Shown one piece after another: positions 47,176 through 63,146 of a stretch of DNA of 64,000 bases (position 1 is the stretch's first letter; each line of letters starts with the position of its first letter). The DNA is taken from the NCBI GenBank assembly GCA_965218795.1, contig OZ244653.1, forward strand, positions 3,168,001-3,232,000, written 5' to 3'. Source of the stretch: a bacterium. GTDB taxonomy: Bacteria; UBA8248; JACPRG01; G963555815. The notes beneath the pieces were generated by a model. That model did not search any database. It had not been told where the DNA came from and saw nothing but the letters and a program-made list of their open reading frames with translations. A program made the translations under genes and the position numbers.

Positions 47176-47244
47176 GGACCCCTGCCAAAAACCTGCAGGT
47201 GTGACACCCGATTCCCTCCCCGCCAGCGACCTAATAAACGCCGA

Positions 47245-47820
47245 TGCACTGCCCTTGCAAGGGGGTTGCAAGGGGCGATTCCCCTCCCCCCATTTTCTTC
47301 GTCCTGGACCCCTACCAAGTGCTCGTCGGGGCAGGCCCTCGGTCATTCCCGCCCCCGATTGAAGCCTTCGGGGGCATGCTTGAGCCTTCCCGTGCGCCTG
47401 CCTGGCCGGCAGGCGGGAATGACGGACCGGGGGCGAGTCCCCGAAGGCTCTTGTTGGAGGCCATGCCGCATGGGGTCCCGTCCCTGTCGCGGCAACAAGG
47501 CCGCTCCCTTTGCCGCGTCAAGCCGAACAGCCGTCTCTCCCCCCACCGGAAAATCTGCAGGCTGCGCCCTTGATTTGCCGACTCCCCCTCAAGGGGGGGA
47601 AGATTGATGGACGAGGAGACCATAACTGGATTCCCGCTTTCGCGGGAATGACGGGCCGGGGGCGAGTCCCCGAAGGCTCCCGTTGGAGGCCATGGCGCAT
47701 GGATTCCCGCCCCTGTCCGGCAACAAGGCCGCTTTGCCGCGTCAAGCCGAACAGCCGTCTCTCCCCCCACCGGCTCGGCTGCTCCTTGCCGACTCCCCCT
47801 CAAGGGGGGGAAGATTGAAG
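47245..47820. repeat. Mosaic array of REP-like palindromes
   Basis: Two related units starting GGGAATGAC and ending CTCCCCCTCAAGGGGGGGAAGATTGA, plus CCTTGCAAGGG and dRS3-like hairpins. Confidence 0.85.
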
Positions 47821-47989
47821 GACCAGGGGCGGGTATTTGCGCCTTCGGGGGACGCGGCGGGGCGCATTCGGGCGATGACGGTTTGGTTTGGAGGCTTGGA
47901 CAGGCATGGGGCCGTATCCTGCAAAGGCGGAAACCTGGACGAAAAAAGGCATCAGCATGGATATGGAGGGGGGTGACCACTAGATTTTC

Positions 47990-48305
47990 CGGGAGATATC
48001 CAAGGACCACCAGGCGGAAGGGCTGACGGATGAAGACATGTTCGATGTGACCCAGATCGTCGGCTAGTTCAATTACACCAACCGGAGGGCCAACCCCCGG
48101 GGCGAGCCTCAGCATGCAGGACGGAGAAGGCCGTTGGGCGACGTTCGAGGGCCGCGGACGCGTCATGGAGGACCGCCCTACGGTGGAAGAGGCGGTCCGG
48201 CGTCACCGCCGGCGCTATGGCGGCGACACCTCGGTCTCCCCGGATTTCGCCGCCATCGAGATTCAGATCGAACGGGTCATGGGCGAGTGGTGGCTGACCC
48301 GGTGA
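47990..48305 (+). pseudogene. Adjacent remnants: AhpD/peroxidase-related C-terminus and PNPOx-like C-terminus
   Basis: GLTDEDMFDVTQIVG*FNYTNR, then WATFEG.GRV...RY...IEIQIERVMG. Confidence 0.45.
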
Positions 48306-48369
48306 AACACACGCCCAGGTTGAGATTCCAGTGCAGCGGAGCGAAAATCATTGTAAACGGTCCGGAAAC

Positions 48370-48600
48370 CGCCCTTGTCCGGCAACCAGGCCGCTCTCTC
48401 CGCCGCGTGAAGCGGAACGGCCTCTCCCCCCACCGGAAAATCCGCGGGCTTGAGCTCTTGATTTTCCGACTCCCCCTCAAGGGGGGAGTGATATAAGGAC
48501 CAGGCAGGTTTACACGGGAATGACAGGTGGAAAATCTCCCCGAAAAAGACCCCGGAATCGCCCATGAAAGGTCCTTGCAAGGGCGTTGCAAGGGGCGTGC
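48370..48600. repeat. Further copy of the CTCCCCCTCAAGGGGGGAG composite repeat
   Basis: CGCGTGAAGCGGAACGGCCTCTCCCCCCACCGG...CTCCCCCTCAAGGGGGGAGTGAT matches units in 58270-59065. Confidence 0.85.
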
Positions 48601-48710: not shown

Positions 48711-49586
48711 ATGCCGCCTCTCAGCGTCTGGATCGCGATCTCGGCCGCTCTGCTCCACGCGGTAGCCAATACGACCGTGCGGTCCGGCCTGCGAACCGCC
48801 TCGCCCATCACGGCGTCCCTGATACTGGTCTGGATCCAGTGGATCGTTTTCGGCCTCCTGTTGGTCCCGGCGGGGGGATTCGGCCGCATAGACGCGGTGG
48901 GGCTGCTTCTGTTCTGCGCGGCGGGTCTCACGTCACCCCTGCTGTTCATGATCTTCTTTTTCATCGGGATCCAACGGATCGGCGCGGCGCGGGCCACCAC
49001 CATCAAGTCGGCGGCCCCGATCTACACGGTCATCTTCGCGGTGGCCTTCCTGGGAGAGCGGCCCACCGCGCTTCGATACCTGGGGATTGCGGCGGTCATG
49101 GCCGGCGTGCTGAGCCTGGTCTGGGAAACCGCGGACAAAAAGGGCCATGCGGGAAGGAGAAGCGACTACGTCTTCCCCCTGCTGGCGGGCGCGTGCGCGG
49201 GGGTTTCGGCCGTTCTCTACAAAGCGGGCCTGACCCGCATGGACACACCCCTGCTCAGCGTCTGGATCGGAGCGACAGAGGCGGTCCTGCTCTTTCCGCT
49301 ACTCGTCCGGGTGTTCCCCAAGGCGGACCGATACCGGATCGGCAGTCGGCGGGCCTGGCTGTGGCTCGCACTGGGCGGGCTGGCCTCATCCGGGGCCATC
49401 TACTGCCAGATCCTGTCCATCAAGCTGGGCGAGGTCTCGACGGTCTTCACCCTGGCCCAGACCTCGCCTTTGTTCGTGGTGCTGATCTCGGCGTTGTTCC
49501 TCCGGGATCTCGAGCGGGTGACGCCGAGGGTGGTTCTGGGGGCGGCGCTGACAGTGGGGGGCGGCATCATGCTCAGCGCTTTGTGA
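48711..49586 (+). CDS. DMT/EamA family transporter
   Basis: ~10 TM helices in two EamA repeats; FLGERP and FLRDLERVT. Confidence 0.9.
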   Translation: MPPLSVWIAISAALLHAVANTTVRSGLRTASPITASLILVWIQWIVFGLLLVPAGGFGRIDAVGLLLFCAAGLTSPLLFMIFFFIGIQRIGAARATTIKSAAPIYTVIFAVAFLGERPTALRYLGIAAVMAGVLSLVWETADKKGHAGRRSDYVFPLLAGACAGVSAVLYKAGLTRMDTPLLSVWIGATEAVLLFPLLVRVFPKADRYRIGSRRAWLWLALGGLASSGAIYCQILSIKLGEVSTVFTLAQTSPLFVVLISALFLRDLERVTPRVVLGAALTVGGGIMLSAL

Positions 49587-50008
49587 CCGGACGCGGCCCA
49601 TCGCGTGACGCAGCCGGCGCAATCTCAGGCAGGACACCGTTGGGCGATGACGGTTCGGTTGGAAGGCTTGAGGAGGCATGGGGCCGTGTCCTGCAAAGGC
49701 GGAAAACAGGACGAACAAGGGGGCATCAGCATATATTAGGAGGGTGGCCACTGGATTTTCCCGGGTGATTGACGAGGTCACCGACCCCGACAACGATTTA
49801 GCGGATCCTCAGCGAGGTGTGGCAAAGATCCCCACTTGGCGGCGCTCACACGCCCGTGCGCCACATACTTGCTCCCAACCGTCGAAATGCGGTTGATACT
49901 TCCTAATCCGCAGAGGAACTTCTTGTTAGCAATGACAAAAAGACGACCGCGGTCTATACTCTCAACTCCTCAACCCATGGGGCAGTCCTGGAAACGATAG
50001 GAGGCAGT

Positions 50009-50638
50009 GTGCCGAACGAAGATCCACAAATGCCGAGCGGCGAACGGCAACGACTTGGTATTCCGAATTGTCTGCGCTGTATCCTCACTGCAATTTCGGC
50101 ATTGCTTATATTCGTAACAAGCGTGTCTATCGTCCTCTTCGTGGTTAACAAGAAGTCATTTCCTGCGCCCGAGGAGTTAGAGTCGAGCTTTCTGCTCGCG
50201 CTTGCGATTGGGGTGCTGCTCGTCCTCTATGTGCCATGGCAACGGATTAGCATCGCTGGTGTTGAGATCGAGCGCGAACTTCAAGAACAAGCCAAGGATT
50301 TCAGGGAACAAGACGAGAATTCCTCAAAACAAATTGAGCGACTGCAAAAGGAGAATGCAGAACTTCGCAAGAATCCTGCGGAACTACAACTACTACAGAA
50401 AGAACAAAAGCAAAAAGAACAAGAGGAAATGCTTATCCTAAAGTTCTTGAATGAATGGTCAAGCTGGGGGTTCACACCGTTACGAATCAAGAATAGGGGC
50501 GGTAAGGAGTCGGGTTATGAAGAGCTGGGTAAACTTAGCACTAGTAGAATACGAGTGATCCTGAGCAATTTGGTTGCTGATGGCATGGTGCGTTTACGAG
50601 TAAGTAGGAACGGTAATATACTGTACCAAGCCCGCTAG
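50009..50638 (+). CDS. Hypothetical membrane protein (2 TM, coiled coil, possible C-terminal winged helix)
   Basis: Low-GC 209-aa ORF with GGAGG RBS; domain layout inferred. Confidence 0.65.
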   Translation: MPNEDPQMPSGERQRLGIPNCLRCILTAISALLIFVTSVSIVLFVVNKKSFPAPEELESSFLLALAIGVLLVLYVPWQRISIAGVEIERELQEQAKDFREQDENSSKQIERLQKENAELRKNPAELQLLQKEQKQKEQEEMLILKFLNEWSSWGFTPLRIKNRGGKESGYEELGKLSTSRIRVILSNLVADGMVRLRVSRNGNILYQAR

Positions 50639-50650
50639 CTATATTAGGGT

Positions 50651-51145
50651 ATGTTAACATTGGAGTCGCTGGTGCCGAACGCGGGCAAGCGTTTTCACGA
50701 CGCTAGGCTCAACTCTGAAGTCATCTACGGCTTCCACACCCTGGCCATCGACGAGAAGCGCCGCGATTTTCCGCCTTCTCTCTGGAACGAGAGCGACGTT
50801 CAATCACATCAAACCATCGAGCAGGTCTGGTTCGCGGGCGTTCATGCGGATGTGGGCGGCTGGTACGACGAACGCGGCCTATCGAACATCACCTTGCATT
50901 GGATGCTCGGGAAGGCGATGCAGCACGGGTTGGAGGTGGACAAGAATAAGCTCAGAGGATATCGGCGTGATCCGCATGACAAGATGCATCAATCGTATAC
51001 GGGTTTCTGGAAGTTTCGCGGCCAAAGACAGCGCAAGATTCCAGAGGGCGCGACGATCCATGAAAGCGTGTTTGAACGCCGGGACAATCCGGACAACCGG
51101 TATCAGCCCCGGAATCTGCCGGACGAATACGATACGGTGAAGTAG
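50651..51145 (+). pseudogene. C-terminal fragment of a DUF2235/Tle1-like alpha/beta hydrolase
   Basis: H.LAIDEKR..F.P.LW, QVWFAGVHADVGG, L.WM; N-terminal GxSxG region absent. Confidence 0.75.
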
Positions 51146-51151
51146 GTGACT

Positions 51152-51210
51152 GTCGGGTTACGCTCTGCCCTGCATGTGCCTGCCGGCACGGTAGCAGGTA
51201 ACCCGACCTA
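51152..51210. repeat. GTAG-family REP with nested palindrome
   Basis: GTCGGGTTAC...GTAACCCGACCTAC with CCTG..GCCTGCCGGCA..GCAGG in the loop. Confidence 0.65.
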
Positions 51211-51249
51211 CGGCTGCTGTTAATTGCTGGGTACAAACCGAGGATTAGT

Positions 51250-51963
51250 ATGAAAGCTCATTTTCGTACCACACGTAAACATGCCTTCATTGTGCGCCGG
51301 GATGATCTCGATAAAATCTGGAAACTACTAGAGAATCGTATCGGCGCCGTTGATGCCTCAGCAGAGTGTTCGGATGATATGGTGCGAGAATTCGGCGATC
51401 TGAAACAACTAGTCTCGTATGATAATCCGCTTACGAAGAAGATCCTTAAACTTTCCATTCAGTCACGTTCTGGTGATTGGGAGAAGTCCGCAGATGTTAG
51501 CTTTTCGGATGACGCATGGATCGGTAGCCATATCGACATTCACGTCAAAGCGCCGGAACAGATCGGTTCGGAGATTAAAGATAAAATCTCCGACATTTTG
51601 GATGGGACGAACCCATGGTATTCCGTGCTAACGCGAATACCTATTTCCAATGTAATCTTTTGTGTGTTCCTTTTTGCCTATCTTTCCATGCTAATTTACT
51701 CTTCGAATAAACTGAACGAGACACCAAAAGGCAACAGCATTGAGGAGATATTTTTCACGTTAGGTGCCAACATCTTACTTTTTGGGGTATTAGCCCTTTT
51801 CAGTTGGGCCACAGGCAAGCTATGGTCTAGGCTTTTTCCCGTAGCCTTTTTCCCCTTAGGTCAAGAAGCACACCGCTACAAAGTAAAAGAGAAAATCCGT
51901 TGGGTGATAATAGGCGTTGTAGGCTCACTTATGGCATCAATGATCGGAGGACTTATCTGGTAA
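51250..51963 (+). CDS. Hypothetical protein with soluble N-domain and ~3 C-terminal TM helices; probable gene cassette ORF
   Basis: Low GC, GAGGA RBS, TAA stop overlaps the attC-like site. Confidence 0.75.
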   Translation: MKAHFRTTRKHAFIVRRDDLDKIWKLLENRIGAVDASAECSDDMVREFGDLKQLVSYDNPLTKKILKLSIQSRSGDWEKSADVSFSDDAWIGSHIDIHVKAPEQIGSEIKDKISDILDGTNPWYSVLTRIPISNVIFCVFLFAYLSMLIYSSNKLNETPKGNSIEEIFFTLGANILLFGVLALFSWATGKLWSRLFPVAFFPLGQEAHRYKVKEKIRWVIIGVVGSLMASMIGGLIW

Positions 51964-52016
51964 CTATACCCACAGCCGACACTGTAATGCGGTGCGGCTG
52001 AGTGCTGGCGTTAGCC
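51958..52016 (+). mobile_element. Integron attC-like recombination site
   Basis: TAAC-TATACCCA-CAGCCGAC-ACTGT-AAT-GCGGT-GCGGCTG-AGTGCTGGC-GTTAGCC; ~59-nt imperfect palindrome ending in GTTRRRY-like core. Confidence 0.65.
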
Positions 52017-52079
52017 CTACAAAGAAATGAAAGGAAGTATTCGCTACGTTCGACCGCCTCTTCCACGGCTTACATCTGG

Positions 52080-54656
52080 CTAATAGGGTTTAGCTTCGTC
52101 CCAGACGCGGCCGATGGCCGCTGCAATCTTCCCCTCCATCCGCTCCACCAACTCGCGATTGGCGTTGACGAGGGCTTGCTCGGCTTCGATATCGGTAACG
52201 ATGGTTTGTTGGATTTCGATAGATGGGCGAGGGATTTTGGTCTGGAACAATTGCGACCGATTGATCTTTGGAATACTTGCTCGTTCGTAGTGGTACCGAA
52301 TTTGTTTATTGAACGCTTCAGACAGCATATAGGCTGCTAGATAAGTAATCTGGATTTTGGAGTGGTCCGGAAGCAGGGGATACATGTCGGAGCTACAGTA
52401 TCCCTGAAGATCGACAACCGCTAATTTGTTGAGGTATGGTCGGATCTTGCTGTAGAGAAGACGTTCGCCAACAAATTCATAAACCGGGCCGTTTACCCTT
52501 TGGGCTTGAGCCGTCTCCACTTTTAGGAGCTTTCCAGTATTTGATTCAATACTATCTGCGCCGAAGTAAGGAAGGGTGATGTCCACGTCCTTGGTGACAA
52601 TTCCGCCTAGCGAGCACAACTCCCCCAACTCGACCATCGGCCATTCAGGGTCGATGGGGATGTGGGGGCGGTAGTTGTCGATGACGGCGCGGGCGCCATC
52701 GATGACCTTCTGGTAGCCCTCGATCTCGGCGATGATTTCCTTCTGTACTTCCGGGGGTGGGAGGGGTAGTTTGATTCGCTTTAGCGAATTGCCATTAAAC
52801 TGCGGCTGACCCCCTCCGGTCACAAATGCTTTCGCTTGGTTCCAATAGGCGTCGCTTTGGGCGAAGATCCAATAGTATTGAGGATGAACCTGCTCGGGCA
52901 GAAAGCGTAGTCGGATTAGATAGGATGCAAAAACTGCAGGGCAATCCTCCTCAAAGAGCATCGTCTTGCCATAGGTGGCACCGGTTCGAGCAACGAGGAT
53001 GTCTCCTTTTTGAAGAATCGATTCGCGCGCCTCACTTGTCAAGTTAATGAACTTAGGTTCTTCATTTCGAAGCGTTCCATGTTCAGAAATGTCAGTGATC
53101 CGTATGAATCTCGCATCGCCTTCCTCGCTCGCCTTTGCGGTGAAGCCATATTCGGGTTTCGCGAGTTCCCCCAATTCCACCATCGGCCATTTTGTTCTTG
53201 TACGAATTCCATTTTCCCGATACCGCTCACCGCTCAGGTTGTATTCCCCATCCGCGGCGATCCTTTCCTTTTCCACGATGAGGGCGGCCCCTTGCTCGAT
53301 GAGGCTTCCCAACATGGATGGACAGGATGAACGGGATTCCTTCTTATCCTGAATATCCTGCGCATCCATGTTCATGTATTCCTTCACGCCCCGCGCCGTG
53401 TCCGGCAGGTCGTTCCTGTCAATCTCCCGCCGCTGCGCTCCCAGGTCGAACCCGTCGTTCTCGACCTTGAAGAAGGCGATTTTGTCCGTCTTCTTCGCGA
53501 GCGGCTTGTCGAGGATGAGGATCGAGGTCTTGACGCCGGAATACGGCTGGAACACGCCGGCGGGCAGGGAAACGACCGCAACCAGGTACTCGTCGACGAG
53601 CATCCTGCGAAGCTGCTTGTAGGCGTTCTGGCTCTGGAAGATGATCCCCTCGGGCACGATGATCCCGGCGCGGCCCGAAGGCGTCAGGTGCTCGGCCATG
53701 TAGTCCACGAACAGCACCTCGCTCCGCTTGGACTGCACCGAGAAGCGGTTGTGGGGGCGGATCCCGCCCTTGGGCGACATGAACGGGGGGTTGGCCAGGA
53801 TCACGTCGGCGTACTCGTTCCAGCGGTCCTCGCTGGTGAGGGTGTCGTACTCGAAGATGTGCGGGTCACTGAAGCCGTGCAGGTACATGTTCACCAGGGA
53901 CAGGCGCACCATGTCCGGCGAAATGTCGTAGCCCTTGAAGTTCTCCGCCAGCCGGCCCCTTTCGTCGGGGGTCAGCATGGATGTCTGGAATTCACATGGA
54001 TAGACAGGATGGACAGGATTGTCAGTGTGATTTTCATCCTGCCCGTCCCGCATATCCATGTTCGCTCTCAGGATGTGCTTGTAGGCCGAGATCAGGAACC
54101 CGGCGGTGCCGCAGGCCGGATCGAGGACGGTCTCGTCCTTCTTCGGGTCGAGGACCGCGACGATGAAGTCGATGACGTGGCGCGGGGTTCGGAACTGCCC
54201 GGCGTCGCCCTGGGAGCCGAGGACGGAGAGCAGGTACTCGAAGGCGTCGCCCAGGCGCTCGGAGTGATCGTAGGCGAACTCGTCGATGACCTTGAGGAAG
54301 GCGCGCAGGGTCTCGGGGTCGCGATAGGGCAGATAGGCGTTCTTGAAGATGTCGCGGAAGAGCGGCGGTATGCCCGGGTTCTCCGGCATCCTCGTAATGG
54401 CCTCGGCGTAGAGGTTCAGGATCTCGTGGCCGCCGAGTCCGGCGCGCATCAGCCTGGCCCATCCGTAGCGGGCGAACCCGCCGTCGAAGAAGCTGCGCCG
54501 GCCGCCGAGCTCCTCGCTCTCGGCGTCGATGTCGTCCATGAACTTGTAGATGAGGGCGATGGTGATCTGCTCGACCTGGCTCTTGGGGTCGGGCACCTTG
54601 CCCACGAGGATGTCGCGGGCGGTGTCGATGCGGCGTCTGGTGTCGGTGTCGAGCAT
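52080..54656 (-). CDS. hsdM: Type I R-M N6-adenine methyltransferase fused to specificity subunit (two TRDs)
   Basis: GQFRTPR, LDPACGTAGFL, NPPF; WPMVELGEL twice and P...Q..I motifs in the S moiety. Confidence 0.92.
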   Translation of the reverse strand: MLDTDTRRRIDTARDILVGKVPDPKSQVEQITIALIYKFMDDIDAESEELGGRRSFFDGGFARYGWARLMRAGLGGHEILNLYAEAITRMPENPGIPPLFRDIFKNAYLPYRDPETLRAFLKVIDEFAYDHSERLGDAFEYLLSVLGSQGDAGQFRTPRHVIDFIVAVLDPKKDETVLDPACGTAGFLISAYKHILRANMDMRDGQDENHTDNPVHPVYPCEFQTSMLTPDERGRLAENFKGYDISPDMVRLSLVNMYLHGFSDPHIFEYDTLTSEDRWNEYADVILANPPFMSPKGGIRPHNRFSVQSKRSEVLFVDYMAEHLTPSGRAGIIVPEGIIFQSQNAYKQLRRMLVDEYLVAVVSLPAGVFQPYSGVKTSILILDKPLAKKTDKIAFFKVENDGFDLGAQRREIDRNDLPDTARGVKEYMNMDAQDIQDKKESRSSCPSMLGSLIEQGAALIVEKERIAADGEYNLSGERYRENGIRTRTKWPMVELGELAKPEYGFTAKASEEGDARFIRITDISEHGTLRNEEPKFINLTSEARESILQKGDILVARTGATYGKTMLFEEDCPAVFASYLIRLRFLPEQVHPQYYWIFAQSDAYWNQAKAFVTGGGQPQFNGNSLKRIKLPLPPPEVQKEIIAEIEGYQKVIDGARAVIDNYRPHIPIDPEWPMVELGELCSLGGIVTKDVDITLPYFGADSIESNTGKLLKVETAQAQRVNGPVYEFVGERLLYSKIRPYLNKLAVVDLQGYCSSDMYPLLPDHSKIQITYLAAYMLSEAFNKQIRYHYERASIPKINRSQLFQTKIPRPSIEIQQTIVTDIEAEQALVNANRELVERMEGKIAAAIGRVWDEAKPY
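53311..53372. repeat. CAGGAT palindrome inside hsdM-S, in frame
   Basis: AACATGGATGGACAGGATGAACGGGAT-N8-ATCCTGAATATCCTGCGCATCCATGTT. Confidence 0.9.
53994..54061. repeat. CAGGAT palindrome inside hsdM-S, in frame
   Basis: ACATGGATAGACAGGATGGACAGGAT-N16-ATCCTGCCCGTCCCGCATATCCATGT. Confidence 0.9.
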
Positions 54657-54673
54657 AAACGGATTCTTAATTT

Positions 54674-55357
54674 ACATGGATGAACAGGATGGACAGGATC
54701 ATTTCTTGTTCCGTCTATCCGGGTTTGTTCTTACTCCGGGTGAAGCGTTTGTATTCGAGCTTGGGGTTGCCGAAATTGATGAGAAGCCCTACCTCGATGC
54801 CGGTGGCATTCAGGTAGTTGATGATCTGGGCTTGATGCTCCGAGGTGAGGGCCTTCACCGCTTTGAGCTCGACGATCACGTTGTCTTCGATAAGGAGATC
54901 AGCGTAAAAATCGCCAACCGGCTTGCCGCGAAAGCATACTGTGATGGGCTTCTGAGCCTCAACGGAAATCCCTGCACCCAACAGCGCGATAATCATGGCC
55001 TTTTCATAGACAGACTCCAAAAACCCGCTTCCCAAATCGTTGATCACCTCAAAGGCGCAGCCAATGATGGAGCGCGTCAGTTCCTGGTGCAGCCTTTCGG
55101 TATCCATGTCCGGTTCCTTCATTTACATGGATGTACAGGATGGACAGGATTCTGGGATTGATCCGTGTCCTGCCTATCCTGTTGGTCCATGCTTGGTTCC
55201 TTCATTTACATGGATGTACAGGATGGACAGGATTCTGGGATTGATCCGTGTCCTGCCTATCCTGTTGGTCCATGCTTGGTTCCTAAATTTACATGGATGT
55301 ACAAGATATACAGGATAATTTCCATTTTCCTATCCTGTCCATCCTGTTCATCCATGT
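54674..55357. mobile_element. Candidate GxxExxY element bounded by a perfect 26-bp inverted repeat
   Basis: ACATGGATGAACAGGATGGACAGGAT at 54674-54699 and its exact reverse complement at 55332-55357. Confidence 0.65.
54715..55122 (-). CDS. GxxExxY protein (PD-(D/E)XK nuclease fold)
   Basis: GFLESVY, ADLLIE.NVIVELKAV, AQIINYL, GLLINFG; alternative start at 55107. Confidence 0.93.
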   Translation of the reverse strand: MKEPDMDTERLHQELTRSIIGCAFEVINDLGSGFLESVYEKAMIIALLGAGISVEAQKPITVCFRGKPVGDFYADLLIEDNVIVELKAVKALTSEHQAQIINYLNATGIEVGLLINFGNPKLEYKRFTRSKNKPG

Positions 55358-55358
55358 T
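55121..55358. repeat. Three tandem CAGGAT hairpin units with 83-bp period
   Basis: ATTTACATGGATGTACA starts at 55121, 55204 and 55287; the first two units are nearly identical. Confidence 0.92.
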
Positions 55359-55366
55359 TGACTTCT

Positions 55367-57913
55367 CTAGGCGGCGAACCGGTTCAGGGGCACGTAATCC
55401 TTGACGTATTCGGGGATGAGGGTGCGGTACTTCTCCGGCACGGCGCGGAAGTCGCGGGTGGAAAACGCCGGGTGGGTGGCCAAGCCGGTGAACTGTCGTC
55501 TGTCGATGATGTCTCGGACATAGCCGTTGGTGACGTACGCCTTGAAGTAGGTCCTGATGGCCGGGATGGACCGGGCCTCCCGGGGCTTATGGTCGGCGAC
55601 GAACTTGGCGAATTCCTCCTCCAGCAGCTCGTCCCTGGACTTGAAGCGCGGGATGAGGCCGAAGACCTTCTCCAGGATCTCGCGCAGGGTGAGGCGGCGG
55701 TCCACCGCGGCGGCTTTCCGCAGCTTGTCGAGGGTGTAGTACTCCTCGGGTCTGTCGAAGACCTCGCGGTTCACGTAGTCGATCACGCGGTCCCACTGTC
55801 CGGCTTCGACGGCCTGCGCGACGGTCTCGTCCTTGCGCACCGCGTCCTCGAACTTCTCGAAGAACATCCGGTCGATCTTCATCCCTTCGGAGCCGACTTC
55901 CTCTTCCCGGATCGTCGAAAGGATGTCGCGTCCAAGATGCTCATAGGCGCCGCCGGTTCTGACAGACTCTTCGCCGTCCCCGTCCTGGCCGTCCTCGCCG
56001 CCGCTCAAGGCCCGGGGCCGCGGCAGCTTCAATACCTCGTCGTAGTTGAACTCGGTCTCGAAATACTCGCAGTTGCCGAAGAAATCGAAGAGCTTGAAGG
56101 CGGTCTTCTCAGGTTCTTTGACGCCATCCGCGAGCGCGGGGTCGTGTAGCTGGTCGAGGAAATCGTGCGGGCGGGTGCCGCGCCCCTTGATCTGGACGAA
56201 ATCGGTGGGCGAGAAGATGGGGCGGAACAGGCCGAGATTCAGGATGTCGGTGCAGTCGTAGCCGGTGGTCATCATGCCCACGGTCACGCAGACCCGGGCC
56301 TTGCTCGTCCGGTAGCCGTCCAGGAAGTTGGCCGCGCCGAGCAGGTTGTTGTTGGCGAAGTTGACGGTGAACTGCTGGGCGTCCGGCACGTGCGAGGTCA
56401 CCTGCACGGCGAAGTCGGATTGGTATTTGCCGGGGAACATCCGGTCGGCGATCCGGTTGAAACTCTGCGCGAGCTTGGCCGCGTGGCTCTGGCTGACGGC
56501 GAACACGATGGACTTGCCGATCTCGCCGCTGACCGGATCGCGCAGGGCGTTCTCCAGGAAGGTCTTGCAGAAGAGCTGGTTGGTGGCCTCGGAGTAGAAG
56601 CGCTTCTCGAACTCGCGCTGCTTGTAGGCCTCGCCGTGATCCTCTCCCTCGGTATCGGTGAACGAGACGACGAACCCCTCCTCGGAGAGGAGCTGCGTGG
56701 TCACTTCCGTGCGGGCGTCCACCACGGTCGGGTTGATCAGGTATCCGTCATTCACGCCGTCGAGCAGCGAATATCGGAAGGTGGGGTGCCCGCTCTCGCA
56801 GCCGAAGGTGCGGTAGGTGTCGAGGAGGAGGCGCCGTTCGGCTTCGCGCGGGTCATGCGCCGCGGCGCCGTTCTTTCCGGCGCCCTTCAAATAGTCGCGG
56901 GGCGTGGCCGTCAGGCCGAGCTTGCAGCCCACGAAAAAGTCGAACACCGCGCGGGCGTTGCCGCCGATGGAGCGGTGCGCCTCGTCGGAGATTACGAGAT
57001 CGAAATCGGTGGGCGAGAAAAGCCGCCGGTATTTGTTGTCGAACAGGAGCGATTGCACGGTGGTGACGACGATCTCGGCGCGCCGCCACTCGTCCCGGTT
57101 CTCCTTGTAGACGACCGTCTGAAAGTCCGCCGAGAGCAACGCGGTGAAGACCTTCCGGGCCTGTTCCTCCAGTTCCAGCCGATCCACCAGGAAGAGGGCG
57201 CGGCGGGCGTTGCCGGAACGAAGGAACAGCTTGATGACGGCGGCGGCGGTGAGGGTCTTGCCGGTGCCGGTGGCCATTTCGAAGAGAAAGCGGTCGCCGC
57301 CGTCTTTCACCGCCTGCTGGAGGGCATGGATCGCTTTGAGCTGATAGGGGCGCAGAAAGCGCAGTTTGTTGGCCTGGATGAAGCCGGATCGCTCGGCTTC
57401 GTTCTTCCACGCGGCTTCGGAGGCGTAGTTCGGCCGCTGCGTGAGGACGATGTAGTCGTCTCGGACCCGTTCATCGATCAGGCGCCGCGGGTCGGGCGAG
57501 ACCTTCTGGTAGCCGGATACCGAATCCGGCGTCGGGAACGAGGTGATGACGTAGGGATTGCCGCGCTCCAGATCCCAGAAGTAATGCAGGTTGCCGTTCG
57601 ACAGGATGACGAAGCGGCAATTCTGCGAGCGGGCGTATTTGCGGGCCTGCTCCTTGCCGGCGAGGGGGTTCCTGTCCTCGGACTTGGCCTCCAGGACGAT
57701 CAGGGGAAACCCCTTGGCGTCGAGGAGCAGGAAGTCGATGAAACCTTTGGAGGTATTCTCGAAGTCGTCGCCCAGGGGGTCGAGGTCGGATGCCTCGATC
57801 GTGACGCCTGTCTCAAGGCAGATGTTGGCGGGCTCTCCCCCTTCGGCGAAGAAGCGCCAGCCGGCCGCTTCGAGCAGCCTGTTGATCTTGATGCGGGAAG
57901 CGGCTTCGTTCAT
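55367..57913 (-). CDS. hsdR: Type I restriction endonuclease subunit R
   Basis: IDFLL..VLEAK..QARKYA nuclease motifs, MATGTGKT, DEAHRS, LTATP, QIKGRGTR. Confidence 0.93.
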   Translation of the reverse strand: MNEAASRIKINRLLEAAGWRFFAEGGEPANICLETGVTIEASDLDPLGDDFENTSKGFIDFLLLDAKGFPLIVLEAKSEDRNPLAGKEQARKYARSQNCRFVILSNGNLHYFWDLERGNPYVITSFPTPDSVSGYQKVSPDPRRLIDERVRDDYIVLTQRPNYASEAAWKNEAERSGFIQANKLRFLRPYQLKAIHALQQAVKDGGDRFLFEMATGTGKTLTAAAVIKLFLRSGNARRALFLVDRLELEEQARKVFTALLSADFQTVVYKENRDEWRRAEIVVTTVQSLLFDNKYRRLFSPTDFDLVISDEAHRSIGGNARAVFDFFVGCKLGLTATPRDYLKGAGKNGAAAHDPREAERRLLLDTYRTFGCESGHPTFRYSLLDGVNDGYLINPTVVDARTEVTTQLLSEEGFVVSFTDTEGEDHGEAYKQREFEKRFYSEATNQLFCKTFLENALRDPVSGEIGKSIVFAVSQSHAAKLAQSFNRIADRMFPGKYQSDFAVQVTSHVPDAQQFTVNFANNNLLGAANFLDGYRTSKARVCVTVGMMTTGYDCTDILNLGLFRPIFSPTDFVQIKGRGTRPHDFLDQLHDPALADGVKEPEKTAFKLFDFFGNCEYFETEFNYDEVLKLPRPRALSGGEDGQDGDGEESVRTGGAYEHLGRDILSTIREEEVGSEGMKIDRMFFEKFEDAVRKDETVAQAVEAGQWDRVIDYVNREVFDRPEEYYTLDKLRKAAAVDRRLTLREILEKVFGLIPRFKSRDELLEEEFAKFVADHKPREARSIPAIRTYFKAYVTNGYVRDIIDRRQFTGLATHPAFSTRDFRAVPEKYRTLIPEYVKDYVPLNRFAA

Positions 57914-58202
57914 GCGGACGGGGCCTCTTTCGCGGCGCCATGGGACAGACCCGGAGTGTCCCGCACCGCTTCCGTGGTCTTCAAACGCCGAGATCCCCCT
58001 ACCTCCGCCACGACCGGGCGTCCAGTTTCTGTCACGGTCTCATCACGGGCGAGAATCCAGCTTCGTTCGTTCATTCCCGAGACCCTCGCAAACTCAAGAG
58101 CCAAATCCCAACCAGAAAAAAATACGAACTCTTTGGCCTTGTTTCGTAATACCACATCCCAAGGATTCCCGCACCCGAATGCTCCTGTCGGGGACCATGC
58201 CC

Positions 58203-59070
58203 TGGATTCCTGCTTGCGCAGGAATGACGGGCTGGGGGCGAGCGCCCGAAGGCTCTTGTCGGAGGCCATGCCGCATTGGTTCCCGGCCCTGTCCGACAAC
58301 AAGGTGATCCTCCGCGTGAAGCGGAACGGCCTCTCCCCCCACCGGCAAGATCCGCGGGCTGCGCCCTTGATTTGCCGACTCCCCCTCAAGGGGGGAGTGA
58401 TTCAAGGAACCGGGGGCGGGCTTCCACGGGAATGACAAGTGGAAAATCCGGGGAATTCCGGGGCGAAACGGCCGAGGAAACGTCAAGGGTGTATGAGGCG
58501 TTATAAGACCCCCCACCACACAGCCTTCGCCTCGGGGCTCGGCTTCTGCGACTCCCCCTCAAGGGGGGGAAGATTGATGGAGCAGGAGGCTGTGTCGCAT
58601 GGGTTCCCGGCCCTGTCCGGCAACAAGGCCCCTCCCTCCTCCGCGTGAAGCGGAACGACCTCTCCCCCCACCGGAAAATCCGCGGGCTGCGCCCTTGATT
58701 TGCCGACTCCCCCTCAAGGGGGGAGTGATGTATGGAGTGCCGCACCGGCGGGCCGGGCTTCCACGGGAATGACAAGTGGAAAATCCGGGGAATTCCTGGG
58801 CGAAACGGCCGAGAAAACGTCAAGGGTGTATGAGGCGTTATAAGACCTCCCACCACATCAGCCTTCGCCTCGCGGCTCGGCTTCTGCGACTCCCCCTCAA
58901 GGGGGGGAAGATTGATGGAGAAGGAGGCTGTGCCGCATGGGTTCCCGGCCCTGTCCGGCAACGAAGGTGCTCCTCCGCGTGAAGCGGAACGGCCATTTCC
59001 CCCCACCGGCAAGATCCGCGGGCTGCGCCCTTGCCTTGCCGACTCCCCCTCAAGGGGGGAGTGATTGATG
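58203..59070. repeat. Tandem A-B-A-B-A composite palindromic array, period ~337 bp
   Basis: CCACGGGAATGACAAGTGG at 58424 and 58761; CTCCCCCTCAAGGGGGG at 58379, 58552, 58707, 58890, 59043. Confidence 0.9.
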
Positions 59071-59170
59071 GAGAAGGGGCGGGGCGTTCGTCCTGTATGA
59101 TGGGAACGCCGGCGCCGGGCAGGATGCCCGGCCGGCCGTAGGTCTCACTCCGCGCCGGAGAGGACAGGAC

Positions 59171-60860: not shown

Positions 60861-63146
60861 ATGGTCATCGAGCACACATTCGTCGGACGCCGTCTACCGA
60901 TGGTGGACGGAAAAGAGAAAGCCGCCGGTGTCGGGGAGAACATCGCCGACATGAGTCTCCCGGGGATGCTTCACGGCAGAATGCTGCGGAGCCCCCATCC
61001 CCACGCCAGAATTCTCAACATCGACACGGCAGAGGCCGAGAAGGTGCCGGGGGTCAAGGCGATCCTCACCGGCCGGAACTCGCCTCAGCCAAGATTCGGG
61101 ATCTCCACCCTGGATGAAACACCCTTCTGCACGGACAAGGCGCGGTACGTGGGCGATGAGGTCGCGGGCGTGGTCGCCGAGACGGAGGAGGCGCTGGAGG
61201 AGGCGCTATCCAGGATTTCGGTCGAGTATGAACCGCTCACTCCCGTCACGGATCCGCTGGACGCCCTGGAGGAGGGAGCGCCGCTTGTCCATGAAGACAA
61301 GCCCGGAAACGTCGCCTACGGCTTCGAGATAGAACGCGGGGAGGTGGACGACGCCTTCCGTCGCGCCGATCAAGTGTTCGAGGGAGCCTATCGCACCCAC
61401 CTCACGCACCAGGCGTATCTCGAGCCCACTGGGGCGATCGGCTCCTTTCAGGACGGACGGTTGACGGTTTGGGGCTGCCTGCAATCGATTTATGCCATTC
61501 GCCCTTACCTCCTCTCGCGTCCGATGGAGATTCCGCTGGACAACGTCACCGTCGTCCAGACGCGTCCGGGCGGGGCCTTCGGCGGAAAGCTGGACGTCAA
61601 ACTCGCCTTGCTGGTCGGCCTTCTGAGCCGTGCCGTCGAGGCTCCGGTCCGGTGCATCCTGACGCTGGAAGAAGACCTGATCAGCATGCGGCCCCGCATG
61701 CCGGCCATCCTGGATATCCAGTCCGCTTTTTCGAAAGGCGGCAAGTTCATGGGGAAAAGGGTCAAGGTGGTTGCCGACAATGGGGCCTATTGCAGCCTTT
61801 CCCCGCAAATCATGAGCTCACTGGCCCTTCGGACGGACTCCCTCTACCGCACCCCCGCCGTGAAGATTGACGCAAAACTCGCCTATACCAACACCGAACC
61901 CACCGGGCAGATGCGGGGATTCGGCAATCTTCAGGCCACCTTCGCATGGGAAAGTCATCTGGACGAAGTGGCCGAGGGGTTGGGCATCGACCCCGTCGAC
62001 GTCCGTCTCAAGAACCTGACGGAAACCGGCGATACTTCCATCCACGGGTGGAAGATCATCAGCTGCGGCATCTCCGACTGCCTCCGGCAGGCCGCCGAGG
62101 CGATTCAATGGAAAGAGCTTCGCAACGGTCAGGAGGCGGGGCGCGGCGTAGGGCTCGCCTGCTGCATCCACGTGACCGGCAACCGTGGGTTCAGCGCCGC
62201 CCTGGTGGATAAAGACGACGACCCGTCGGAAACCGAGGTGGTCATCCGCGACGACGGGAAGGTGGAGATCCGGTCAGGAGAATGCGATCTCGGAGAGGGG
62301 GCGGGAACGGTCATGGCCCTTGTGGCGGCGGAAGAGCTCGGACTTCCGTATGACGACATGATCGCCGCTGTCCATGACACATCCATCGTTCCTTTCGGCC
62401 TGGGGGCCTTCGCCAGCCGGATCACGCTCATGGGGGGCGCCGCAACCCGCGACGCCGCCATCAACGCCCGCCGGATGCTCGTCGAGGCCGCGGCGGCGGC
62501 CTTCGAGGTCCGGCCCGAAGAGGTCGAGAAGGACGGCGGGGAATTCTTCGTCCGGAGCATGCCGGCCCGGAAGATGACCGTTCAGGAGGTGGTTCAGTCC
62601 ACCGGAAAATCCACACTCTCCGCCATGGGCCGATTCGAGGCGGGAGGGGACATCCTCGACCCCAAGGACAAGTACGGAAACGCCTCCACGACCTACTCCT
62701 TCTCGGTCCATGCGGCGGATGTGACGGTGGACCTGGAAACCGGGGAGATCCGGGTGAACAGGGTCATTGCGGCTCATGATCCGGGCAAGGTGATCAACGT
62801 TTTGGGTGCCGAGGGGCAGGTCGAAGGCGGAGCCGCTCAGGGTGCGGCCTATGCGTTGATGGAAGAGCTGGTCAAGGACGGATCCGGCAAGATTCTCAAC
62901 AACAACTTCGAGGGCTACCTGCTCCCGACCTCCCTGGACGCCTTTGACGTGGATTCGATTTGGGTGGAGACCATTGACCCGGTGGGTCCGTTTGGGGCCA
63001 AGGGCCTCGCCGAGACGGCAATCAATCCGACCCCCGCAGCGGTGGCGAATGCGGTCTGCAACGCCACGGGGGTACGAATCCGGCATCTCCCGGTGACGCC
63101 GGAGAAAATCGTCGCCGGGATGAATGACGGAAAAAATGTTTCATAG
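60861..63146 (+). CDS. Xanthine dehydrogenase family molybdopterin-binding subunit
   Basis: LRSPHPHARI, GGAFGGK, MRGFG, ASR, GQVEGG..QG, GPFGAKGLAE. Confidence 0.93.
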   Translation: MVIEHTFVGRRLPMVDGKEKAAGVGENIADMSLPGMLHGRMLRSPHPHARILNIDTAEAEKVPGVKAILTGRNSPQPRFGISTLDETPFCTDKARYVGDEVAGVVAETEEALEEALSRISVEYEPLTPVTDPLDALEEGAPLVHEDKPGNVAYGFEIERGEVDDAFRRADQVFEGAYRTHLTHQAYLEPTGAIGSFQDGRLTVWGCLQSIYAIRPYLLSRPMEIPLDNVTVVQTRPGGAFGGKLDVKLALLVGLLSRAVEAPVRCILTLEEDLISMRPRMPAILDIQSAFSKGGKFMGKRVKVVADNGAYCSLSPQIMSSLALRTDSLYRTPAVKIDAKLAYTNTEPTGQMRGFGNLQATFAWESHLDEVAEGLGIDPVDVRLKNLTETGDTSIHGWKIISCGISDCLRQAAEAIQWKELRNGQEAGRGVGLACCIHVTGNRGFSAALVDKDDDPSETEVVIRDDGKVEIRSGECDLGEGAGTVMALVAAEELGLPYDDMIAAVHDTSIVPFGLGAFASRITLMGGAATRDAAINARRMLVEAAAAAFEVRPEEVEKDGGEFFVRSMPARKMTVQEVVQSTGKSTLSAMGRFEAGGDILDPKDKYGNASTTYSFSVHAADVTVDLETGEIRVNRVIAAHDPGKVINVLGAEGQVEGGAAQGAAYALMEELVKDGSGKILNNNFEGYLLPTSLDAFDVDSIWVETIDPVGPFGAKGLAETAINPTPAAVANAVCNATGVRIRHLPVTPEKIVAGMNDGKNVS

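Follow-up and report, generated by a model that had tools for sequence, protein, structure and literature searches.

A GxxExxY nuclease gene nested in palindromic arms that also occur as dispersed gene-less copies, suggestive of a selfish DNA element of an undescribed type

Why is a small gene of the GxxExxY family, placed between the subunit genes of a type I restriction-modification operon, surrounded by copies of a single palindromic repeat? The original prediction, made from the letters of the window (the whole 64-kb stretch of DNA that was analysed), proposed a RAYT/REP-like or MITE-like system with a restriction-type nuclease as its enzyme. The gene-in-palindrome arrangement, the dispersed gene-less copies and a polymorphic insertion site support this proposal in part, while membership of RAYT/REP falls away with the absence of an HUH/Y1 enzyme. 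The features of the locus are as follows.

52080..54656, minus strand: fused hsdM-S, 858 aa (Pfam N6_Mtase 1.1e-47, Methylase_S 2.9e-21)
53311..53372, no strand: hairpin A, inside hsdM-S, in frame (site A)
53994..54062, no strand: hairpin B, inside hsdM-S, in frame (site B)
54674..54733, no strand: hairpin F, perfect arm 54674-54699 plus degenerate partner at ~54709-54733 (-9.4 kcal/mol, z -3.1)
54715..55122, minus strand: GxxExxY gene (TIGR04256 1.4e-42, PF13366 6.9e-42), likely start ATG 55107 in a degenerate arm
55125..55193, no strand: hairpin C, tandem 83-nt unit (-16.3 kcal/mol, z -5.0)
55208..55276, no strand: hairpin D, tandem 83-nt unit, 96% identical to unit C (-16.3 kcal/mol, z -5.0)
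55291..55358, no strand: hairpin E, whose arm 55332-55357 is the perfect partner of 54674-54699 (-15.6 kcal/mol, z -6.4)
55367..57913, minus strand: hsdR, type I restriction subunit, 848 aa (NCBIfam EcoAI/FtnUII family R subunit 2e-61; Pfam ResIII, HSDR_N)

Eleven palindrome arms made of 9-nt CAGGAT units lie within 53313-55356, against 0.44 expected, and form six hairpins (A-F) around the GxxExxY gene that separates hsdR from the fused hsdM-S. Each arm consists of a CATGGAT end followed by 9-nt units ACAGGATRN. When as many as 3 mismatches are allowed, the 16-mer core matches the window 11 times (0.44 expected; none of 100 shuffles reaches 11), ten times within 53313-55347 and once, with 3 mismatches, at 49410. 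A 25-nt template, scanned with up to 4 mismatches over its 19 fixed bases, matches 12 times, 11 within 53313-55356 and once, with 4 mismatches, at 61698. The repeat family is thus located where the original prediction had placed it and is far beyond chance. Its anatomy was also correctly read: a perfect 26-nt inverted repeat (54674-54699 and 55332-55357, arms separated by 632 nt) encloses a 684-bp segment, three tandem hairpins (C, D and E) follow one another with an 83-nt period, and two further copies (A and B) are found nearby. Every tandem unit carries a Shine-Dalgarno-like stretch and an ATG. Three features had been overlooked: the sixth hairpin, F, the degenerate arm of which overlaps the GxxExxY stop codon and encodes the last codons of the gene; the in-frame translation of hairpins A and B within the 858-aa hsdM-S ORF; and the variable triplets of the arms, which are whole codons in the reading frame MDxQDxQD. 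Folded as DNA, six of six hairpins reach -9.4 to -16.5 kcal/mol (z -3.1 to -6.4). A search of this region against Rfam 15 at E ≤ 1 gave just a sub-threshold mir-140 match (26 bits, threshold 70), and 20 repeat loci searched at gathering scores gave just an RNase P RNA and one tRNA, neither related to the repeat.

The bounded segment does hold a GxxExxY gene, as had been proposed: the minus-strand ORF matches TIGR04256 with 144.7 bits (cut-off 35) and PF13366, PDDEXK_3, with 142.9 bits (cut-off 22). The segment has no other ORF, Pfam and NCBIfam give only PDDEXK_3/GxxExxY, and an HUH/Y1 (IS200-like) transposase is absent. The start codon that the original prediction derived from a degenerate arm, ATG 55107, is supported by three observations: it is the exact point where the arm of the next tandem unit would begin, it stands 7 nt downstream of a Shine-Dalgarno-like GAAGGAA stretch, and a database protein 99% identical to the window's product (P0001) begins there, with MDTERL. 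Among 103 relatives, G28, E31, D70, E80 and K82 are invariant and Y34 nearly so, which corresponds to the G-x-x-E-x-x-Y motif and a D...E-x-K core. The AlphaFold2 model (pLDDT 92, pTM 0.85) has the PD-(D/E)XK nuclease fold, with Foldseek matches in the PDB to Cas4 SSO0001, lambda exonuclease, 3ijm and Hjc (E 4e-4 to 5e-3, TM ~0.45-0.56); a sequence search of solved structures gave no relative. The enzyme looks active, with no variation in its catalytic E, D and ExK residues, and it looks dimeric because two-domain proteins exist in the family (~20 of 150 representatives), one of which, modelled from an alignment of 19, has a pTM of 0.83. The family comprises 17,819 clusters (50% identity) at E ≤ 0.001. 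In three database proteins, GxxExxY is fused onward into downstream genes with a pilin-like signal start, as judged by eye. The sole function entry that we found for PDDEXK_3 is 'Unknown', in a 2012 survey (PMC3424549).

The palindromes belong with the GxxExxY gene, as the original prediction implied, since independent genomes have arms running over the start and the stop of genes in this clade. The arm peptide MDxQDxQD is N-terminal in 66 (strict) to 81 (relaxed) of the 120 closest GxxExxY proteins, which are 69-99% identical, and a translated arm is C-terminal in 30 of the 120 (17 with the right-arm and 13 with the left-arm peptide); 25 have an arm peptide at both ends. At the repeat loci L026 and L121 the first GxxExxY residues are encoded by the arm, and at L072 a complete 57-nt hairpin stands on either side of the gene, with DUF4434 and nucleoside hydrolase genes as the flanking neighbours. 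GxxExxY genes at just 36-44% identity are flanked by different inverted repeats, specific to their clades but with a comparable periodic structure; the arm classes include CAGGAT, CACAAA, CACAGAG, CGCGAAGG, AACGCGGAT and others. One of these genes (L031), from another phylum, has the same hsdR, GxxExxY, hsdM-S order with a gene 40% identical to that of the window, and its inverted repeat differs, being 26 nt long, 88% complementary and composed of CACAAA units. Four of eight distant plasmid GxxExxY genes also have strong flanking repeats (L131, 30 nt; L134, 28 nt; L136, 25 nt; L132, 65-121 nt), and such a repeat is absent in the other four; three of these repeats score 18-22.5 versus maxima of 13.5 at 1200 control positions and 12.5 at 24 other genes. 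The plasmid copies are inserted between operon genes in the same orientation and with short spacers, for example between fabD and fabG. In a Xanthomonadales-like clade, 63 of 119 proteins combine an M[NDS][AT]D start with a ..SASIRV end, and the codons for NAD and IRV can be mutual reverse complements. The terminal-peptide classes cluster on the protein tree, with 49 changes versus a shuffle mean of 88.9 and minimum of 78 (300 shuffles), in a crude test where labels are common to related rows; with representatives only, the effect is modest (25 changes versus a shuffle minimum of 26). Taken together, these comparisons show the predicted nuclease gene to be nested in the arms, and the arm sequence to change with the gene clade.

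Arms without a GxxExxY gene turn up at 128 or more sites, distributed over 88 genomes and at least 16 phyla, mostly next to housekeeping genes. Among the 128 matches listed, 123 have no GxxExxY gene in the flanks examined (77 of the 80 loci whose flanks reach up to 2 kb, 46 of the 48 whose flanks are ~300 nt), the exceptions by phmmer being L026, L031, L072, L119 and L121. The original prediction counted a repeat spread independently of the gene against itself, and this is literally what the listed loci display, yet a REP- or MITE-like system leads to the same expectation, so the idea is not refuted. The gene-less form is an arm-loop-arm of 55-150 nt; tandem hairpin arrays occur, and Terriglobia and Versatilivorator genomes contain copies of 139-150 nt that bear an arm at each end and have, by eye, similar interiors. 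The matches show gene-less copies to be dispersed across phyla and support a scattering in MITE- or REP-like manner.

Two such hairpins are carried by the restriction-modification genes themselves. The R, M and S functions of a type I system are encoded together here, the hsdM-S ORF having an N6 methylase domain followed by two specificity domains; its 120 listed homologues measure 523-908 aa, mostly ~640-890. Site B lies between methylase motifs I and IV, and among the 108 homologues in which it could be located it is short or empty in 74, filled with an arm peptide in 30 (the insert is doubled in one of the 108) and occupied by other inserts in 4. At the locus L007, site B is empty and an ORF6N-domain gene occupies the slot that GxxExxY holds in the window. 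Hairpin B is thus inside an ORF, keeps its frame and is missing in some homologues, as is typical of in-frame palindromic elements, and among close hsdM-S homologues site B is an insertion site with presence/absence polymorphism. Site A, ahead of the C-terminal tail of the methylase part, has an arm peptide in 119 of the 120 closest homologues (recognised by pattern in 102, degenerate in 4 and read directly from the sequence in 13) and is therefore old or has been taken into use; it does not reflect recent movement. Three genomes agree at all five D/Q codons of the site-A arm, compared with 14 of 34 codons elsewhere in hsdM-S, and its aspartate codons are GAT, whereas hsdM-S favours GAC 45:14; by this codon evidence, the arms are constrained as DNA.

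Such a distribution might also arise if the hairpins were an independent REP- or MITE-like family, moved by another enzyme or by host recombination, with GxxExxY as settler or cargo. Most copies are indeed far from any GxxExxY gene; several arm classes pile up in the same spacers at L028, L038, L039 and L047; and isolated transposases occur near arms, an IS630-type DDE_3 gene 400 nt away at L043 and IS66 and IS240-type genes at L035 and L036. However, among the 2222 ORFs beside the repeat at the 128 listed loci, all-against-all clustering gave no recurrent transposase family, and no protein family other than GxxExxY is represented in 4 or more genomes. The Pfam search of neighbours covered the chosen ORFs of L001-L039, which make up 150 of the 306 selected in L001-L080, and 24 further picks, the remainder being compared by clustering only. 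Moreover, the arms change with the GxxExxY clade even in the identical slot between hsdR and hsdM-S, and they overlap start and stop codons in many independent sequences, which is not expected of a passenger. We consider an independent family unlikely.

The arms could instead act at the RNA level, pairing around an inserted gene as a processing, terminator or insulator structure, with gene-less hairpins as scars of gene loss. The same orientation and short spacers of the genes inside operons, the stability of the hairpins and the Shine-Dalgarno-like stretch with ATG in each tandem unit are in line with this possibility, which we nevertheless regard as distinctly improbable. The variable triplets of the two arms of a hairpin hardly co-vary (3.29 versus 2.81 of 6), so that protein-binding arrays fit better than a structure kept for itself. 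Gene-less tandem arrays and the 139-150-nt sets with similar interiors indicate amplification, not decay alone; the in-frame copies are translated through and so are not removed from the mRNA; and no Rfam family matches. Finally, it is very doubtful that GxxExxY serves the type I system as an accessory or regulator with the palindromes as its operators, like other small embedded genes: the recurrence of the gene order at L031, six GxxExxY/hsdM-S pairs of database hits with equal-sized longest contigs and the fixation of the site-A hairpin in the hsdM-S clade speak for it, but the same gene clade and hairpins sit amid metabolic genes at L072, distant relatives are located in fab and other operons, L007 has the ORF6N-domain gene in that slot, and hairpins adjoin housekeeping genes in many phyla.

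The explanation that we favour, with a probability of roughly 55%, is an autonomous nuclease-in-palindrome selfish element with MITE-like gene-less derivatives, in which the nuclease would be the mobilising enzyme. The window would contain one autonomous and five gene-less copies, which would have colonised the type I restriction-modification operon. In the proposed autonomous form, a gene for a ~125-aa GxxExxY nuclease is bracketed by inverted arms of 9-nt units, the left arm supplying the start codon and the first residues, MDxQDxQD, and the right arm lying at or across the stop codon. Gene-less hairpins would land between genes and, owing to the near absence of stop codons from the arms, also in frame inside genes. 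A GxxExxY dimer may recognise the hexamer arrays of its own arms and cut there. Spread could then proceed by excision and re-insertion, or by repair of the break from another copy through the ~26-nt arms, resulting in homing of the gene or of the loop. No 125-aa PD-(D/E)XK protein is known to act by itself as a transposase. The broader proposal that GxxExxY proteins are clade-specific mobility nucleases of phylum-spanning palindromic elements, every clade acting on its own set of 9-nt-repeat arms and with a ~125-aa PD-(D/E)XK dimer as sole machinery for movement or homing, is put forward tentatively, at a little under even odds.

The nesting of the gene and the dispersal of its arms point to an undescribed kind of selfish DNA element. 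In the literature on GxxExxY/PDDEXK_3 and on palindromic mobile PDDEXK elements we found no description of a nuclease-in-palindrome element, and four 16-mers of the arm, matched anywhere in paper text, gave no occurrence. The link between GxxExxY and clade-specific palindromes provides a testable hypothesis for a whole, very large family lacking a function, and gives orphan palindromic repeats in poorly studied phyla a possible source. Palindromes entering proteins in frame, so far a matter of Rickettsia, gain a second case, and the system suggests a minimal nuclease-plus-site pair that might serve as a tool. For annotation it is a warning that these hairpins fuse ORFs. If the broader proposal is true, these elements would form a novel class of DNA transposons or homing elements and be the origin of many orphan palindromic repeats, and their gene-less hairpins would be seeding the spacers between genes, and even loops of proteins, across many bacterial phyla.

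Among known systems, an integron cassette was considered and rejected: no integrase is present among the ORFs at positions 48-60 kb of the window or among recurrent neighbours, and the element ends, checked by eye, are unlike attC core sites. Free-standing homing endonuclease genes, some of them PD-(D/E)XK, are small nuclease genes wedged between conserved operon genes. GxxExxY genes likewise lie in the same orientation between operon genes, and spread by break repair is a candidate mechanism for them; no homing gene is known to lie within a dispersed palindrome family or to produce gene-less palindromic derivatives. REP classes are as a rule lineage-bound, unlike the arm sequence described here, which is common to at least 16 phyla; the present arms also differ from REPs in overlapping coding ends and in having copies in frame inside genes.

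The resemblance to REP/REPIN and RAYT is otherwise close, as far as the relevant passages of PMC3116915 and PMC3337134 describe them: a single enzyme gene is flanked by palindromes presumed to be its targets, gene-less palindromes are numerous between genes, and the repeat sequence tracks the enzyme clade. The present locus likewise has an enzyme gene flanked by its own palindromes, and copies lacking the gene are numerous in other places (at least 128 stretches, from 88 isolates), the enzyme being a PD-(D/E)XK fold and no HUH/Y1 transposase. As with IS elements and MITEs, in the portions of PMC10969869 devoted to them, terminal inverted repeats are common to coding and short non-coding forms, within-genome families of ~150-nt copies exist and insertion is polymorphic. 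Unlike IS elements, the system has no DDE, HUH or serine transposase and a coding form of only ~450-700 bp; unlike both, no clear direct target duplication was seen at 66 hairpins, whose flanks only prolong the palindrome (TTnA...TnAA) with no consistent direct repeat. The PDDEXK_2/Rpn-type 'transposases' of Wolbachia cid islands are another case of a PD-(D/E)XK protein treated as a mobility or recombination enzyme, but they belong to another Pfam family and are far larger (~1 kb gene), and nested palindrome arms are not described in the corresponding part of PMC13439711. Similar in their effect on proteins are the Rickettsia palindromic elements, in-frame palindromes in protein genes that are translated as extra loops; the account of them in PMC10969869, in the section concerned, ties no enzyme gene to them, whereas here a nuclease gene bears the same arms. 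The hosts span many phyla here and a single genus there.

The restriction locus of the window has the gene order hsdR, GxxExxY, hsdM-S, and ORF calling places all its genes on the minus strand.

Genes and repeats of the restriction locus
52080–54656, minus strand: fused hsdM-S, 858-aa ORF with N6_Mtase and two Methylase_S stretches
53311–53372: hairpin A, inside the hsdM-S ORF
53994–54062: hairpin B, inside the hsdM-S ORF
54674–54699 and 55332–55357: perfect 26-nt inverted repeat, bounding 684 bp
54715–55122, minus strand: GxxExxY gene, 135-aa ORF (TIGR04256, 1.4e-42; PF13366, 6.9e-42)
55125–55358: three consecutive hairpins with an 83-nt period
55367–57913, minus strand: hsdR of the EcoAI/FtnUII kind (profile match)

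The repeat arm consists of CATGGAT and then 9-nt units of the type ACAGGATRN. The 16-mer arm core has 11 matches against 0.44 expected, the 11 arms matching a 25-nt template all cluster in 53313–55356, and as DNA each of the six hairpins folds well (z −3.1 to −6.4); the observation behind the original prediction, namely a repeat family around the GxxExxY gene with a perfect bounding inverted repeat, three tandem hairpins and two nearby copies, therefore stands. In the rest of the 64 kb, where the original prediction saw no copies, the template has one weak match. The hairpins pair via the hexamers, while the variable bases form small internal loops. A sub-threshold Rfam match to mir-140 at 55164–55235 (26 bits versus 70) was discarded as a meaningless by-product of the hairpin. 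The ATG at 55107, proposed earlier as a possible start codon within a degenerate arm, is the exact expected start of the next tandem unit's arm; it is preceded by a Shine-Dalgarno-like GAAGGAA, and a database protein 99% identical to the window GxxExxY starts at the matching position. At the other end of the gene, the degenerate partner of the 54674 arm codes for the final codons and the stop.

The GC content is 0.44–0.62 over 50000–55400, the stretch in which the restriction locus sits, and 0.66–0.72 outside, and this low-GC island fits a horizontal gain of the locus and its neighbors. A second repeat family, unrelated to the arms, consists of 77–115-nt units with a CTCCCCCTCAAGGGGGG core; its 7–8 copies, at 47216–48597 and 58202–59083, bracket a stretch of about 10 kb containing the locus. 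The slot upstream of hsdM-S is variable, since in a homologous locus (L007, 3260–3925) an ORF6N-domain gene directly upstream of hsdM-S replaces GxxExxY.

A scan of 185,579 species genomes with the arm query CATGGATNNNCAGGATNNNCAGGAT matched at least 128 stretches, where about 4 are expected by chance from the collection size, in at least 88 isolates and at least 16 named phyla. Among the matches listed, the chief phyla are Chloroflexota, Acidobacteriota, Pseudomonadota, Verrucomicrobiota, and Latescibacterota, and at least 60 loci carry a complete hairpin, with loops of 5–243 nt. The annotated neighbors (150 of 306 chosen ORFs, loci L001–L039) are mostly ordinary genes, such as those of FGGY kinase, histidinol dehydrogenase, CTP synthase, SecA, and Met-tRNA ligase. 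In several loci of Terriglobia and Versatilivorator, copies of 139–150 nt are bounded by an arm on each side, and by eye their interiors are similar. No direct target duplication was found at the hairpins, and no Rfam family matched the repeat in the window region or the sampled loci. In four loci (L028, 1707–2096; L038, 2053–2120; L039, 2263–2351; L047, 1924–2076), inverted pairs from further periodic classes (CACAGAG, CACAAA, CACGAA) adjoin or surround CAGGAT arms; the same spacers thus accumulate palindromes of several classes.

At first sight, locus counts do not tie the repeat to the gene, a GxxExxY ORF being present in 5 of the 128 arm loci among the matches listed, and a separate mobilizer might move the hairpins. 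Three further lines of evidence change this picture, and we consider a separate mobilizer the weaker explanation. GxxExxY is the sole protein family recurring beside the repeat in several genomes among the loci listed, and the gene-repeat geometry is constant across the GxxExxY-bearing loci: a hairpin-GxxExxY-hairpin unit is flanked by two metabolic genes in L072, the first GxxExxY codons come from an arm in L026 and L121, and an arm lies 3′ of the gene in L119. Among the nearest proteins (best 120 from a collection of 5.8 billion sequences), an arm translation forms the N terminus of 66 (strict pattern) to 81 (relaxed), and a right-arm translation (NPVHPVHPC-like) forms the C terminus of 17; both ends are arm-derived in 25, and 13 continue into a following left arm. 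In the Latescibacterota locus L026 (1950–3420), four units in tandem (about 135 nt each, left arm first) lie on one side of GxxExxY and an array whose units end in right arms on the far side, making a large composite inverted structure; L023–L026 jointly contain many arms across about 9 kb. In three predicted proteins (P0354, P0368, and P0382), a GxxExxY domain is followed by translated hairpin arms, then by what by eye resembles a prepilin-type N-terminal signal, and by a long downstream protein; they are probably ORF fusions made by stop-free hairpins.

Hairpins A and B are translated in frame within hsdM-S (NMDxQDxQD...SCPS/NPVHP). Site B, where hairpin B is read, is readable in 108 close homologs, of which 74 have it empty, 30 have it filled, and 4 hold something else there; one homolog carries a double insert, and the right arm is found in either of its possible reading frames. 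The site is usually ..AN-TD-AEGHST.. when empty and ..AN-MD-xQD.. when filled, and an AAC codon precedes both window insertions, a possible sign of target preference or of microhomology to the end of the arm. In L031 (1300–1440), the insert at site B is a different one, also in frame, in which an NPQSKI motif is repeated; it may be left over from another element. Site A is occupied in 119 of the 120 nearest homologs, so its hairpin is either old or co-opted. This palindrome separates the methylase core from its tail and ends with an in-frame ATG (..SCPS-M-L..); it may serve, for example, as a linker or internal start. Five D/Q codons of the site-A arm are identical across three genomes, when other such columns share a codon in only 14 of 34, and they use GAT against the gene's preference for GAC (45:14); these codon data suggest either that the DNA itself is under constraint or that conversion has recurred.

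At the variable bases, co-variation between the two arms of one hairpin is slight (3.29 versus 2.81 of 6); what the arms keep is the hexamer array, which fits recognition by a protein. An RNA-level role of the arms, with the hairpins as scars, is a weaker explanation. Across 103 relatives, the catalytic residues of GxxExxY (E, D, and E-x-K) are invariant. Its structure is predicted with confidence (pLDDT 92), and the similarity to Cas4, lambda exonuclease, a restriction-like protein, and the junction resolvase Hjc lies in the common fold. About 20 of the best 150 family representatives, including P0241, P0243, and P0244, have two domains, the second showing no D...ExK motif in the consensus of 19 aligned sequences. 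One of these, modeled from that alignment (pTM 0.83), suggests that the two domains would pack as a pseudo-dimer with one active site.

GxxExxY genes of other clades have different arms, built in the same way. In L031, which shares the window's hsdR, GxxExxY, hsdM-S order, GxxExxY is only 40% identical and is flanked by another 26-nt inverted repeat, of CACAAA units; the neighboring methylase (P0138) is 77% identical over residues 150–490. Among plasmid GxxExxY genes (31–48% identity), four of eight have strong flanking repeats (units CACAGAG twice, CGCGAAGG, and GGACTGAAGAA), three of which far outscore 1200 control positions and 24 other genes. The plasmid copies sit between operon genes in matching orientation, for example between fabD and fabG, a placement typical of selfish insertions; GxxExxY as an accessory in restriction is likewise a weaker explanation. 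Of 119 proteins from a clade whose names are Xanthomonadales-like, 63 combine an M[NDS][AT]D start with a ..SASIRV.. end, and the NAD and IRV coding sequences can be mutual reverse complements. Terminal-peptide classes are clustered on a tree of 249 GxxExxY cores, with 49 changes (shuffles at least 78, n = 300), and show 25 changes on a representatives-only tree (shuffles at least 26); the test is a rough proxy, as related rows have labels in common.

The best-supported reading is a nuclease-in-palindrome element with MITE-like derivatives lacking the gene. The gene is nested in a palindrome, the arms are clade-specific, and the repeat is dispersed and polymorphic; we infer that the GxxExxY nuclease is the mobilizing enzyme. 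It would mobilize the palindromic element by cut-and-paste or by break repair through the arms of about 26 nt. In the literature covered, with subscription journals mostly outside it, no description of a GxxExxY-palindrome link was found. For the RAYT/REP-like or MITE-like system originally predicted, nesting, dispersal, and polymorphism hold. The element works like RAYT/REP systems, although it is not a RAYT family member, and like IS/MITE pairs, while the in-frame copies of its repeat behave like the Rickettsia palindromic elements.
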